The notes under the pieces: model-generated
Database searches by the model: none
What the model was told of the DNA's origin: nothing
Seen by the model: the letters and a program-made list of their open reading frames with translations, nothing else
Source: Escherichia coli
Lineage (GTDB): Bacteria > Pseudomonadota > Gammaproteobacteria > Enterobacterales > Enterobacteriaceae
DNA: 64,000 bases
Reading direction: 5' to 3' (one strand)
NCBI RefSeq assembly: GCF_044647545.1
Contig: NZ_CP172818.1
Translations under genes and position numbers: made by a program
Shown here: positions 41,866 through 47,879 of the stretch, one piece after another
How positions within the stretch are numbered: the first letter of the stretch is position 1
How the letters are laid out: each line of letters opens with the position of its first letter

Positions 41866-42276
41866 ATGAAGTGGCAACAACGTGTTCGTGTCGCAACGGG
41901 TCTAAGTTGCTGGCAGATTATGTTGCATTTACTGGTAGTGGCGCTGCTGGTGGTGGGCTGGATGAGTAAGACTCTGGTTCACGTCGGCGTGGGATTATGC
42001 GCACTGTATTGTGTCACGGTAGTGATGATGCTGGTGTTTCAGCGCCACCCCGAGCAACGCTGGCGTGAGGTGGCAGACGTGCTGGAAGAGCTGACCACGA
42101 CCTGGTATTTTGGTGCAGCGCTGATTGTGCTGTGGCTGTTGTCCCGCGTACTGGAAAACAACTTTTTGCTGGCAATTGCAGGGCTGGCAATCCTTGCTGG
42201 CCCGGCGGTAGTGTCTTTGCTGGCGAAAGATAAGAAGTTACATCACCTTACGTCTAAACATCGCGTACGCCGCTGA
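41866..42276 (+). CDS. ybhQ: small inner membrane protein
   Basis: 136-aa ORF with four hydrophobic segments and RBS; 3' end overlaps ybhR 3' end by 39 nt. Confidence 0.85.
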
Positions 42277-43344
42277 CCCTGTCGTGGCCGTTATCACCAG
42301 TAGCGGCCACAAACTATTCCACACAATATCCAGACTCGCATCCTTCAAATAAATCTGCTTGGTAATGTCCGTAAAGTGGCGAATAGGGTTAATCCACGTC
42401 AGATTTTGCAGCCACACTGGCATGTTTTCCACCGGCGAAACGTAACCGGAAAGGAGAATGGCGGGCATCATAAAGACAAACACGCCGATAAACGCCTGCT
42501 GTTGTGTCGAGCAGAGTGATGAAATCAACAGACCGAAGCCTACCAGCGATAAACCGTAAATCACCATCGTAAAGTAGAACAGCGCCAGCGATCCGGCGAA
42601 GGGGATTTGATACGCCCAGATACCAATCGCCAGCACAATGGTGGCCTGGAAGGTGGCGACAATTAATGCCGGTACGGCCTTGCCGATGAATATCTGCCAG
42701 GTGGTGAGCGGCGAAACCAGTAACTGATCGAGCGTACCTTGTTCACGTTCGCGGGCGACGGAAAGTGAAGTGACGATCATTACGCCGATAGTGGTGATCA
42801 TGGCGATCAGCGACGGCACCACAAACCATTTGTAGTCGAGATTCGGGTTATACCAGTTGCGTACCACCAGCTCGCTGTTGTTGGGTTTCGGTTTTCCTTC
42901 CAGCAGCTCCTGCTGATAATTTTTGACGATCTGTTGCAGGTAGTTGGCGGCAATTTGCGCACTGTTGGAGTTACGCCCGTCTAGGATCAACTGTAACGGC
43001 GCGGTCTGGAAGGTATCCAGTTTGCGCGAGAAGTCAGCCGGGAAACGCACCAGGAGTAACGCCTTTTGTGTGTCGATGGTCGGGCGGATCTCCTGCGGGC
43101 TTTTCAGCAGCAGCACATGGGTAAAGGCGCTGGCGCGGGCAAAACGTTGGGTCAGCTCCACCGAATGCTCGCCGTTATCTTCATCGTAGATGGCGATGGT
43201 GGCGTTAGTCACTTCCAGCGTGGCGGCGAACGGGAACAGGATCACCTGAATCAGCACGGGTAAAATAAGAATCGCACGGGTTTGCGGTTCGCGCAGCAGC
43301 GACTGCAACTCTTTGCGGATTAACGTCCATAAGCGATGAAACAT
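42238..43344 (-). CDS. ybhR: ABC-2 type transporter permease
   Basis: 368-aa membrane ORF, last gene of cecR-ybhGFSR; paralog of YbhS. Confidence 0.94.
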
Positions 43345-43354
43345 GCTCTTCTCC

Positions 43355-44488: not shown

Positions 44489-46217
44489 TGCCATGCTCCT
44501 TATCCCAGTCGTGGATCAACTGAATAAAGGCCTGCTCCATGGTGGGATCGGGTTGCTCATCGTTGGCCGACTGTGCTTTCAAATCGTCCGGCGTGCCGCT
44601 GGCAATCAGCTTCCCGCGATACACCAGGCCAATGCGGTCGCAATATTCCGCTTCATCCATAAAGTGGGTGGTAACCATCACCGTGACGCCTTTCTCTACC
44701 ATGCTATTGATGTGCAGCCAGAATTCGCGGCGGGTGAGGGGATCAACGCCGGACGTCGGTTCGTCGAGAAACAGAATGTCCGGTTCATGCATCAGCGAGC
44801 AGGCCAGTGCCAGCCGCTGTTTAAAACCTAATGGCAGTTCATCGGTGGCGTGTGAGGCAATACTTTTCAGGCCAAATGCCTCGCTCATACGGGAGATTTT
44901 TTCGTTCTGCGCCCGACCGCGTAAGCCATACACACCAGAGAAAAAGCGTAAATTCTGTTCGACCGTCAGGTTGCCGTAGAGCGAAAATTTTTGCGCCATA
45001 TAGCCGAGATGCTGGCGCGCTTTACCGGAACTCTCTTTCAGATCCATGCCCAGCACCAGCGCCTGACCAGAGGTCGGTACCAGCAAACCGCACATCATCT
45101 TAAAGGTGGTCGATTTACCCGCGCCGTTTGGCCCCAGCAAACCAAAGATTTCACCGCGTTTGACGGCAAAGTTGACGTGATCGGTGGCGGCAAAATCGCC
45201 AAATTTTTTGGTCAGTTCTTTCGCTTCGATCACCGTCTCACCGGGTGTGCCTTCTACCGTATGCAATATTGCACCCAGCGGCGATTCCGAGGTTCCGGCA
45301 CCGCCCAGCAAATCAATAAACGCATCTTCAAAACGCGGCGTAGTTTCGTTGATGTTGATTTCCGGCATCCCGTCGGCATGGCGAATATCGTCTGGTGTGG
45401 CCTCTTTTTTGAGGATCAGGCGTACCGATTTCCCCTGAATCATGCCGTCGCTGACCTGCGGCAGTTTCAATGCCCGTTGCAACAGTTTGCGGTTGCCCTC
45501 GTGCGGGCTGGTCATCAGAAAGCTGCGTCCGGCCATAGTTTGAGTCAGGGCTTTTGGTTCCCCCTGATACAGCAACTCGCCTTCGTTCATCAGTAACACG
45601 TCACGGCACTGCTCGGCTTCGTCGAGATACGAGGTACTCCAGAGGATTAACATCCCTTCGCCCGCCAGCTCATGCACCATCTGCCACAGTTCGCGCCGTG
45701 AGATAGGGTCAACGCCGACGCCGGGTTCATCGAGCAGCAACACTTTCGGTTCGCCCACCAGGGTACAGGCCAGGCCGAGTTTTTGTTTCATCCCACCGGA
45801 GAGCTTGCCCGCCAGGCGTCCGGTAAACGGGCCAAGAGACGTAAACTCCAGCAGGCGAGCAAAAGTCTGCTTCCGTGCTTCACCGGTGACGCTGCGCAAA
45901 TCCGCGTACAGATTGAGGTTCTCCATCACCGTCAGATCTTCATACAGGCCGAATTTCTGCGGCATATAGCCGAGCACGGCGTGCAGCGCAGCGTCATTTT
46001 TGATCGGATCAAAGCCAATCACCGTGGCACTGCCGCTGTCGGGTTTCAGTAATCCCGCCAGCATCCGCATCAGCGTGGTTTTGCCCGCACCGTCCGGCCC
46101 AACCAGCCCCGTCACATAACCGGCGTGAATGGTGCAGTCGAGCGGTGCGACGGCGGGCTTGTCCATGCCCGGAAAGCGTTTTTCCAGGCCGTTCAGCGTG
46201 ATAACGGCATCATTCAT
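44481..46217 (-). CDS. ybhF: tandem-domain ABC transporter ATPase
   Basis: Two Walker A motifs ([18 protein letters not shown]) and two signatures ([16 protein letters not shown]); start chosen at [10 protein letters not shown]. Confidence 0.92.
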
Positions 46218-47208
46218 GTCCTGCCTCGTCACCGAATTGCACCGTTACCGGCATTCCCTGGCGTAACGCATCATCGGCGTCGGTCACCACAATACGCAGA
46301 CGATAGACGAGATCGGTACGCAGATCCGGTGTTTCGACGGTTTTCGGGGTAAATTCAGCAGTCGGCGAAACGAAACCAATCTGCCCGTGATACGGCTTGT
46401 CCGGGCGACCATCGGTATAAAGCAACACTTTGCGCCCCGGCTGGGCCTGGTCAAGATTACGTTCATCAACATAGGCGCGTACCCACACCGGACGCGTCAG
46501 CGAGACGGTAAATACCGTACCACCTTCATTAAGCACCGTGCCGGGCTCTACCGCGCGCGTTAACAGCGTGCCATCAGACGGTGCTATCAACGTTGAGTCC
46601 TGCAAATTCAGCTCCGCCTGCGCCAGTTGCGCCTGTGCTTGTTCGAGGCTGGCTTTCGCCTGGGCGATGTCCTGTTCGCGGTTACCGGAACGGTACTGAC
46701 GCAATTTATCCTGCGCTGATTTCAGCGTGGCCTGCGCCTGGTCGCGCGAGGAGCGGGCATTTTCCAGGTCATTTGCCGAAATGGTGCGGCTTTTCCACAG
46801 TCCTTGCTGGCGGTTATAGAAGTTCTGCGCATAGTCATAGGCAGCTTGCGCCTGTTTCACCGCTGCGGCGGCCTGAGCGATTTCTTCATCTCGATACCCG
46901 GCAAGCATCAGGTCATACTGCGCCTGAGCCACCGAAACGCCCGCTTTCGCCTGCATCAGGGCAATCTCATACGGCTTGTGATCCAGTTCGCCCAGCACCT
47001 GGCCCGCTTTGACCGCATCACCTTCGTCCACCGCCAGCGACTCAACGCGCCCCCCAACACGGAAACTAAGATTCACCGTACGAATATCCACGTTGCCATA
47101 CAGCGTCAGGCCGTTATCCTGGCGGCTTTGATACCACCAGTAGCCTCCGGCAACCACGGCGGCAAGTACCACTACCGCCAGTCCGATCACGACAGGTTTT
47201 TTCATCAC
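46210..47208 (-). CDS. ybhG: HlyD-family periplasmic adaptor (membrane fusion protein)
   Basis: 332-aa ORF with N-terminal TM anchor and long Ala/Gln-rich coiled-coil segment. Confidence 0.94.
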
Positions 47209-47879
47209 TACAAACTCCTTTGCGATAATCCTTGCAAAATCAGGTCGATATGACAGGTCACCGTCTGGTTGATCAGTTCGGTCTTTTCTTCATCGAACGC
47301 GGTCCAGCCGGTACGTAACAAAATAGTTTCTTTGCCAAGACGAAACGCCAGAATCTCACCAATCAACGCATGGGTATGGAGGATCATGCGGGTGTCGTTG
47401 GCGTCGCAGCCGGTCCAGGCGGCAATCAGGCGTGTAAGGTGGCTGTGTAGCGGGCTAATCACCTGTTCATGCACCAGGTGGTAGGCTGCCGTAGGAGAGA
47501 GTTGCTCACGGGAGATAAACTTGCTGAGGTTGACGGTGTCATCCTGGGTGAGCAGCTTAATCATGTTCCTGCAGGCGCGAAGGATCAGTTCACGGATAGC
47601 TGCGCGATCAGGCTGTGGTTGCGCGAACAAACGTTCGGCTTCTTCGGCGTGCGGACGGAACTGCTCGCCAATAAAATCGGCAATCCACTGGGCGCAGGCG
47701 AGGTACAAATCCTCTTTCGAACCGAAGTAGTAGGTGATGGCAGCGATATTCTGCCCGGCCTGGGAGGCTATCTCGCGGGTGGTGGCGTTCATTCCATATT
47801 CACCAAACTGCGCCAGTGCGGCAGCAATCAGCTGTTTTTTCGCCTGTTCACCCTTGATTGTCATGGCAGGATTATTCAT
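47208..47879 (-). CDS. cecR: TetR-family transcriptional regulator CecR
   Basis: Start chosen at [25 protein letters not shown] (N-terminal TetR HTH); first gene upstream of ybhGFSR. Confidence 0.9.

Follow-up and report, generated by a model that had tools for sequence, protein, structure and literature searches.

In a 64,000-nt stretch of Escherichia coli DNA (contig NZ_CP172818.1 of assembly GCF_044647545.1, hereafter the window), five consecutive minus-strand genes at positions 42238-47879, cecR-ybhG-ybhF-ybhS-ybhR (cecR-ybhGFSR), appear to form a core operon for a self-repressed, TolC-dependent tripartite ABC exporter, a reading to which we give a probability of roughly 85%. The first gene, cecR (ybiH; 47208-47879), encodes a TetR-family repressor of 223 aa and is followed on the same strand by ybhG (46210-47208; GTG start), encoding an inner-membrane-anchored periplasmic adaptor (membrane fusion protein) of 332 aa. 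Next come ybhF (44481-46217), encoding a single 578-aa polypeptide with two nucleotide-binding domains (NBDs), ybhS (43355-44488), encoding an ABC-2 (type V) permease of 377 aa, and ybhR (42238-43344), encoding a second ABC-2 (type V) permease of 368 aa that is a paralogue of YbhS. The analysis itself yielded the gene content, the motifs and folds, the synteny, and the conservation of the operator, and CecR repression, TolC association, and drug phenotypes are taken from the literature; we infer the stoichiometry, the role of a degenerate ATP site, the promoter position, and the route of the substrate.

The operon as such is already known, being an annotated core operon of E. coli, and is nothing new by itself. 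The 6.1-kb stretch is 100% identical at the DNA level to E. coli FDAARGOS_497, in which the genes are annotated as cecR, hlyD (ybhG), ybhF, ybhS, and ybhR and are flanked by ybhQ, ybhP, clsB, and ybhN on one side and by rhlE on the other. An earlier reading of the window from its letters (the original prediction) had named the five genes in this order, with a TetR-type regulator, an HlyD-type adaptor with a long coiled coil, and two paralogous ABC-2 permeases, and these identities agree with the open reading frame (ORF) listing of positions 40000-50000, the FDAARGOS_497 annotation, and the family and fold matches given below. At a coverage of at least 80%, 5423 of 5426 complete E. coli genomes contain the operon, with an identity of 95-99% in most of them. 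The same locus in K-12 MG1655 (b0796-b0792) has identical gene order, lengths, and junctions, and the five genes differ there at 174 nucleotides but only six amino acids (A39S as the sole change in CecR, I66V and N107D in YbhG, G76A and S576G in YbhF, and T120I in YbhS), which corresponds to 0-2 substitutions per protein (99.4-100% identity) and 2-4% synonymous divergence, with no functional difference evident. The near-universal presence and this excess of nucleotide over amino-acid differences indicate that the operon is both core and under strong purifying selection. What the analysis adds is modest, namely a family-wide degenerate ATP site in YbhF, the assignment of the permeases to the type V class, the TolC-docking (RLS) motif of YbhG, synteny with outer-membrane channel genes in distant clusters, and a conserved operator/promoter footprint, all of which refine the existing picture rather than change it; the first four of these points do not appear in the papers searched.

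YbhF contains two stretches matching ABC_tran in Pfam, with NBD1 at approximately residues 1-230 and NBD2 at approximately residues 325-578, joined by a linker and 37% identical to each other, and the closest solved NBDs are those of ABCA7, ABCA4, ABCA3, and ABCA1, with the DrrA type also matching. Two complete ABC cassettes in one polypeptide had been predicted, and this stands for the domains and for the Walker motifs, since Walker A (GPDGAGKT in NBD1, GPNGAGKS in NBD2) and Walker B (VLLLDE in NBD1, ILFLDE in NBD2) retain the lysine and the Asp-Glu pair in both halves, but not for the remaining motifs. The alignment of Walker B and H-loop residues that the original prediction proposed as a check shows Walker B intact in both NBDs and the H-loop histidine missing from NBD1, where Ser196 (codon at 45630-45632, minus strand) lies in the sequence STSY, as opposed to TTHF with His518 in NBD2. 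The signature of NBD1 is a canonical LSGGM (45789-45803, minus strand), whereas that of NBD2, LPLGF at residues 461-465 (44823-44837, minus strand), is degenerate relative to LSGGQ. HMMER alignments to ABCA7 and ABCA4 confirmed the register of these motifs. Each ATP site of an ABC dimer combines Walker A, Walker B, and the H-loop of one NBD with the signature of the other. Because of this composite construction, the Ser196 and LPLGF defects fall in the same site, and the other site is fully canonical.

The same asymmetry extends across the family. A word-indexed search with YbhF returned only relatives of at least 88% identity, save one Klebsiella entry at 74%, and was replaced by a set of 150 representatives of 50%-identity clusters, to which YbhF and RbbA were added; apart from a few short fragments, the representatives are 37-67% identical to YbhF. 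The H-loop position of NBD1 (n = 152) is occupied by alanine in 58, serine in 41, and proline in 32 sequences (131 together) and by histidine in only 2, as compared with 132 of 138 family members that have the histidine in NBD2. LSGGM is found as the NBD1 signature in 134 of 140 members, and the second position of the NBD2 signature (residue 462) is proline in 114 and serine in 20 of 144. The Walker A lysine and the Walker B glutamate are retained in both NBDs across the family. RbbA shows the same pattern, with ATAY at the NBD1 H-loop and LPLGI as the NBD2 signature. Moreover, relatives with separate NBD genes have ST[A/P/S]Y at the NBD1 H-loop; in those from Bacteroidota, Deltaproteobacteria, and Selenomonadales, ST[A/P]Y occurs in the first gene and TTH in the second, which also has LPxG except at the Selenomonadales locus (LSGG). 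Such separate, adjacent NBD genes occur at loci L012, L013, L017, L019, and L020, and probably at L018. As these split genes carry the same motif asymmetry, the fusion in ybhF looks secondary. Judged from sequence, the motor of this family is an ancient heterodimer in which one ATP site is of the consensus type and the other is degenerate. The sole functional paper on YbhF does not mention a family-wide degenerate site, and a literature search for degeneracy in YbhF gave nothing relevant.

Several heterodimeric ABC exporters, including TM287/288, TAP1/2, CFTR, and ABCG5/G8, similarly pair one consensus with one degenerate ATP site, and most of these are type IV exporters. Their degeneracy likewise consists of a non-histidine H-loop in one NBD and a non-canonical signature in the other. 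By analogy, the degenerate site of YbhF probably binds ATP and hydrolyses it slowly or not at all. YbhF differs from these exporters in carrying both NBDs on a single soluble polypeptide and in keeping the Walker B glutamate in the degenerate site. The position of the degenerate site also indicates where mutations in the Walker and H-loop motifs should give informative results.

The permeases belong to the ABC-2 families of Pfam, with YbhS matching ABC2_membrane_3 (4.4e-38) and ABC2_membrane (1.6e-23) and YbhR matching ABC2_membrane_3 (3.8e-51); the families matched are PF12698, PF01061, and PF12679, and neither protein matches FtsX or MacB_PCD in Pfam at E ≤ 0.001. The two permeases are 26% identical to each other, in agreement with their predicted paralogy. 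Hydropathy and, for YbhR, an AlphaFold2 (AF2) model indicate an N-terminal transmembrane (TM) helix, an extracytoplasmic domain of approximately 120-130 residues between TM1 and TM2 (approximately 130 residues in YbhS), and a TM bundle, and agree with the six TM helices predicted in each protein by Feng et al. The only solved sequence relatives of the permeases are an insect ABCH transporter (E ~1e-13) and KpsM. In a Foldseek search with the YbhR model (predicted local distance difference test score, pLDDT, 78), ABCH-9C was the best match (TM-score 0.66), followed by ABCG25, ABCG5/8, NosY, ABCA3/4/7, and KpsM; all of the top 50 PDB fold matches are type V transporters, and MacB is absent from these 50. 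ABCH-9C, ABCG, ABCA, NosFY, KpsMT, and DrrAB share the same permease fold, with the extracytoplasmic domain after TM1. ABCH, however, is a homodimeric half-transporter with cuticular lipid substrates and has no adaptor or outer-membrane partner, unlike YbhFSR. Together, the ABC2 families and the type V fold matches, with no match to FtsX or MacB, identify the pump as a type V (ABC-2) exporter.

This assignment departs from a major review (PMC8277102, section 5.7), in which YbhFSR is filed under MacB/FtsX and the adaptor is said to be encoded by ybhF. Neither statement agrees with the sequence, in which the adaptor is encoded by ybhG. MacAB-TolC is comparable in being ABC-driven, with a hexameric-type adaptor bearing an RLS tip and with TolC supplied in trans. 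On the other hand, MacB pairs two copies of one chain, in which an NBD is fused to an FtsX part with four TM helices, and its two ATP sites are equivalent, whereas in YbhFSR the NBDs are on a separate polypeptide, the type V permeases, each predicted to have six TM helices, would form a heterodimer, and one ATP site is degenerate. Assigning the pump to type V rather than to the MacB type corrects the classification in the review and predicts a different transport mechanism.

YbhG was identified by NF002939 (605 bits against a cutoff of 393 bits) and by Pfam matches to HlyD_D23, HlyD_3, and Biotin_lipoyl_2, and has one N-terminal TM segment. In its AF2 model (pLDDT 88.3), residues 4-29 form a TM helix, a helical hairpin interrupts the lipoyl domain, and residues 241-324 make up a beta-barrel; the hairpin arms (78-139 and 145-203) are each approximately 60 residues, or approximately 9 nm, long in the model, which, together with the Pfam and fold matches, bears out the predicted coiled-coil adaptor. 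The chain ends at residue 332, just past the beta-barrel, so that YbhG is without the membrane-proximal domain found in AcrA and MacA. This absence places YbhG with the EmrA-like adaptors, not outside the adaptor family. The best PDB folds found by Foldseek are EmrA (of EmrAB-TolC) and MacA, with AcrA and MexA also matching, and EmrA is the best of these (8ZAL/8ZAR, E ~1e-22). EmrA and YbhG are alike in the N-terminal TM anchor, the long hairpin, and the lack of a membrane-proximal domain, although EmrA works with a major facilitator superfamily transporter driven by the proton-motive force and YbhG with an ABC transporter.

The modelled hairpin tip of YbhG carries an RLS motif (RxxxLxxxxxxS) at residues 133-144 (46777-46812, minus strand), with R133, L137, and S144. 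Among 22 YbhG-family adaptors, the arginine is conserved in all 22, the leucine in 21, and serine or threonine at position 144 in 17. Experiments on MacA, AcrA, and HlyD have established the RLS motif as the tip that binds TolC (PMC3391258). The ORF listing and the FDAARGOS_497 annotation reveal no outer-membrane channel gene in or beside the operon, as the original prediction had stated. Distant YbhGFSR-type clusters came from a contig scan, in which most of the matches listed were single-NBD ABC ATPases and about 15 were true double-NBD clusters. Of these, 12 have visible upstream DNA and constitute a small, non-random sample; in 6 of the 12 among the matches listed (L009, L012, L013, L017, L018, and L019), the adaptor gene is immediately preceded by a gene of the TolC family (OEP, PF02321). 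Both this synteny and the RLS motif are independent support for coupling to TolC. Moreover, proteomics has shown that YbhG loses stability when tolC is deleted and that it purifies together with TolC (PMC6056769). With the EmrA/MacA fold as a further line of evidence, a trans-encoded TolC, which the original prediction had implied, is well supported as the partner of YbhG.

Assembled in this way, YbhS and YbhR would form a heterodimer of type V permeases, with one YbhF supplying both NBDs. The consensus site would be built from Walker A/B and His518 of NBD2 with LSGGM of NBD1, and the degenerate site from Walker A/B and Ser196 of NBD1 with LPLGF of NBD2. If the degenerate site hydrolyses ATP slowly or not at all, the power stroke would be asymmetric, which fits the asymmetric permease pair. 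YbhG, held by its single N-terminal helix, is expected to oligomerise around the periplasmic domains and would dock its approximately 9-nm, RLS-tipped hairpin on TolC.

CecR is recognized by the NCBIfam equivalog NF008587 (416.9 bits against a cutoff of 365 bits), has an N-terminal TetR_N (PF00440) and a CecR_C (PF09209) domain, and matches PDB 9I1X with an E-value of 8.6e-148, which together confirm the expected TetR-type regulator. The cecR start codon (ATG at 47879) is conserved across five genera, whereas an upstream ATG at 47891 is not. In the literature, CecR has a single target in genomic SELEX (systematic evolution of ligands by exponential enrichment), located in the cecR-rhlE spacer, and it represses cecR-ybhGFSR and activates rhlE. 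The spacer contains a perfect palindrome, TCTTAATCAA-N4-TTGATTAAGA (47892-47915), with 10-nt arms that are 100% complementary and a 4-nt central spacer, located 12 nt upstream of the cecR start codon, and this palindrome is the probable CecR operator. It is unique in the 64-kb window, with 0 chance matches expected, and is identical in K-12, where the whole cecR-rhlE spacer differs at one base. The palindrome core, TTAATCAATC..TTGATTAA, is invariant among E. coli, Salmonella, Citrobacter, Enterobacter, and Klebsiella, and is kept in Klebsiella even though the divergent neighbour of cecR there is a LysR-family gene and not rhlE. Among the 12 distant clusters, a TetR gene is adjacent in 8 of those among the matches listed, and two of the regulators (L010 and L014) have a CecR_C domain.

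A putative sigma-70 promoter of cecR-ybhGFSR overlaps this site (47915-47941, minus strand), with TGGACA at 47941-47936 and CATAAT at 47920-47915 separated by a 15-nt spacer. In the alignment of the five genera, TGGACAA is invariant and CATAAT nearly so, and the palindrome begins on the final base of CATAAT. A consensus promoter scan upstream of cecR found nothing, and would have missed this candidate because it requires spacers of 16-18 nt. We infer a weak sigma-70 promoter with its start region under the operator. An operator over the start region is the usual layout for TetR repressors. A CecR dimer would thus sit on the 24-bp palindrome, from the last -10 base over the expected transcription start, and would block transcription of cecR itself and the four pump genes until a ligand in its tunnel-shaped pocket releases it. 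In the crystal structure 9I1X, the pocket is a hydrophobic tunnel with trapped polyethylene glycol (PEG) chains, and F74, L109, S119, S123, and Q126 have been named as pocket residues (PMC12998191); all five are present in the CecR translated from the window. The reported affinities of CecR are weak (79 μM for cefepime, 6 mM for cefoxitin, and >50 mM for chloramphenicol).

An inverted repeat, AACTACACCG / CGGAGTAGTT (48070-48107, plus strand), lies just upstream of the rhlE start codon (ATG at 48108), and its 3' arm includes the rhlE Shine-Dalgarno sequence GGAG; the entire rhlE leader is almost invariant among four genera. A role as a hairpin sequestering the Shine-Dalgarno sequence was considered for this repeat and rejected, because its folding is no more favourable than that of shuffled sequence (z = 0.10).

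The phenotypes reported for the pump are diverse. They include sensitivity to cefoperazone and chloramphenicol (Yamanaka, 2016), and tetracyclines, ethidium, Hoechst, and Na+/Li+ tolerance have been given in the literature as further phenotypes or substrates. CRISPR interference (CRISPRi) knock-down of ybiH-ybhGFSR leads to sensitivity to carbonyl cyanide m-chlorophenylhydrazone (CCCP) (PMC12063145), and deletion of cecR increases CCCP tolerance (bioRxiv 10.1101/392977). The preprint interprets the latter as lowered pump expression; the result is most simply read as a derepressed pump, and the two CCCP results agree if CecR is a repressor and the knock-down is polar. With substrates in conflict and CecR affinities weak, the statement in the original prediction that neither the native substrate nor the CecR ligand is firmly established was a fair one.

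One alternative concerns what the exporter natively carries. YbhGFSR may extract a lipid or a membrane-embedded amphiphile from the inner membrane and pass it out via TolC, with the antibiotic, dye, and CCCP phenotypes as side activities. Among solved structures, those closest to the permeases and NBDs belong to exporters of lipids or sterols (ABCH-9C with bound ceramide, ABCA1/3/4/7, and ABCG1/5/8), and as all of these transport lipids or hydrophobic molecules, it is reasonable to consider a lipid or amphiphile as the native substrate. The PEG-filled hydrophobic tunnel of CecR and its weak binding of antibiotics point the same way, as do the hydrophobic or amphipathic nature of all reported substrates and, in Enterobacteriaceae, the adjoining ybhP-clsB-ybhN genes, with cardiolipin synthase B and a lysyl-phosphatidylglycerol (PG)-synthase-type domain. 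However, fold likeness does not fix the substrate, as NosY and KpsM have the same fold and move no lipids, the clsB linkage is not seen in the distant clusters, and a literature search gave no lipid phenotype. We regard a native lipid substrate as less likely than not.

A second alternative would dispense with the tripartite pump, making YbhFSR mainly an inner-membrane Na+/Li+ exporter of the NatAB type that acts independently of YbhG and TolC. In E. coli KNabc, overexpressed YbhF restores tolerance of NaCl, LiCl, and alkaline pH, and a predicted sodium ABC ATPase shares 31% identity with NBD2 (Feng et al., 2020). Nevertheless, the salt result comes from the ATPase subunit expressed alone, and the review cited above (PMC8277102) says that confirmation is needed. 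Moreover, an adaptor that bears a TolC-docking tip is always part of the operon, half of the 12 relatives among the matches listed have an adjacent OEP gene, and YbhG behaves as a member of a TolC complex (PMC6056769), all of which make an independent Na+/Li+ exporter improbable. Less probable still is a MacB-family (type VII) mechanotransmission pump taking its substrates from the periplasm, as filed in PMC8277102 and as might be suggested by the MacAB-like combination of ABC pump, adaptor, and TolC and by the sizeable periplasmic domains of the permeases, because it is contradicted at the level of family membership (ABC2_membrane matches and no FtsX or MacB periplasmic domain), by the six predicted TM helices (Feng et al., with hydropathy and AF2 in agreement), and by the top 50 fold matches, which are all type V and include no MacB. 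Uptake of substrate from the periplasm may nonetheless occur in a type V pump of this kind.

Several observations weigh against the self-repressed, TolC-dependent exporter, or against parts of it. The inconsistent substrates and the weak CecR affinities suggest that drug efflux may not be the native role. In half of the 12 distant clusters among the matches listed, no OEP gene is adjacent to the adaptor gene. As to the motor, the degenerate site keeps its Walker B glutamate, so that residual hydrolysis may occur, and approximately 20 of 144 family members have serine rather than proline in the NBD2 signature, so that this half of the degeneracy is not universal. The putative cecR promoter, proposed from its conservation, has a suboptimal 15-nt spacer and was missed by the scan. 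Confidence in the YbhR model is moderate (pLDDT 78 overall and <50 at residues 153-168), and the PDB copy searched has no solved structure of YbhG, YbhF, YbhS, or YbhR, nor of any other pump of this class.

The closest system within E. coli is the paralogous module YhiI-RbbA-YhhJ, which also consists of an adaptor, a double NBD, and two ABC-2 permeases. Identities are 30% between YbhG and YhiI, 41% between YbhF and the N-terminus of RbbA, 32% between YbhS and the C-terminus of RbbA, and 24% between YbhR and YhhJ. Unlike YbhF, RbbA (911 aa) has the double ATPase fused to the first permease, and it is annotated as a ribosome-associated ATPase; the module also differs from cecR-ybhGFSR in having no adjacent TetR gene. 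Tentatively, and with odds well short of even for the whole, YbhGFSR-TolC and YhiI-RbbA-YhhJ could represent a structurally uncharacterised tripartite class that combines a heterodimeric type V exporter, an obligatorily asymmetric ATPase with one ancient non-catalytic ATP site, an EmrA-like adaptor, and a native substrate that is a lipid or membrane-embedded amphiphile and not an antibiotic, and that may be related to the eukaryotic lipid exporters. The two kinds of cluster are found back to back on one contig at L006 (GCA_005938675.2, 830-11950), where a YhiI-RbbA-YhhJ-type cluster adjoins a YbhGFSR-type cluster.

The junctions of the operon are mostly tight. The cecR and ybhG genes share 1 nt (TAGTG) when ybhG begins at its GTG; the start differs by annotation, being GTG at 47208 (332 aa) in K-12 and ATG at 47205 (331 aa) in the annotation of FDAARGOS_497 by the Prokaryotic Genome Annotation Pipeline (PGAP), which turns the overlap into a 2-nt gap. 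The AAGGAG Shine-Dalgarno sequence of ybhG lies 6 nt ahead of the GTG and 9 nt ahead of the ATG. Overlaps of 8 nt follow at ybhG/ybhF (ATGAATGA) and at ybhF/ybhS (ATGAGTAA). The ybhS and ybhR genes do not overlap; they are separated by a 10-nt spacer, GGAGAAGAGC (43345-43354, minus strand), that carries the Shine-Dalgarno sequence of ybhR. The predicted overlap of 1-8 nt between consecutive genes therefore applies to three of the four junctions (1, 8, and 8 nt) and fails at ybhS/ybhR. The five genes would be transcribed as one mRNA, on which the three overlapping junctions would permit coupled translation and ybhR would be reinitiated from its own Shine-Dalgarno sequence 10 nt past the ybhS stop codon. 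The ybhS-ybhR spacer is likewise 10 nt in Citrobacter; in Salmonella it is 165 nt (L089, 6861-7025), in Enterobacter 115 nt (L091, 6864-6978), and in Klebsiella 129 nt (L092, 7719-7847), and these long spacers are full of GC-rich palindromes resembling repetitive extragenic palindromic (REP) elements. Tight coupling is thus not required at that junction.

At the downstream end, the 3' ends of ybhR (minus strand) and the convergent ybhQ (41866-42276, plus strand) overlap by 39 nt (42238-42276), leaving no room for a shared terminator, and no convincing intrinsic terminator was seen after ybhR. The convergent overlap is also present in Salmonella, Citrobacter, and Enterobacter but not in Klebsiella. 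Plus-strand antisense ORFs inside the operon were taken as chance, the FDAARGOS_497 annotation showing no gene there, and Rfam revealed no known RNA family within 41500-48300. A Klebsiella pneumoniae entry (P0001; L092, 4001-6595) describes an 864-aa "YbhF"; the DNA fetched for it does not translate to that entry, which is probably a mis-called or frameshifted gene model and not a real fusion. In all Enterobacteriaceae loci examined, ybhP (phosphatase family) and clsB (cardiolipin synthase B) flank the pump operon, and this linkage to clsB is absent from the distant clusters. In E. coli, ybhN, with its lysyl-PG-synthase-type domain, comes after clsB; in the window, clsB, ybhP, and ybhN occupy positions 39734-41733 and beyond, and this neighbourhood may bear on a lipid-related role.

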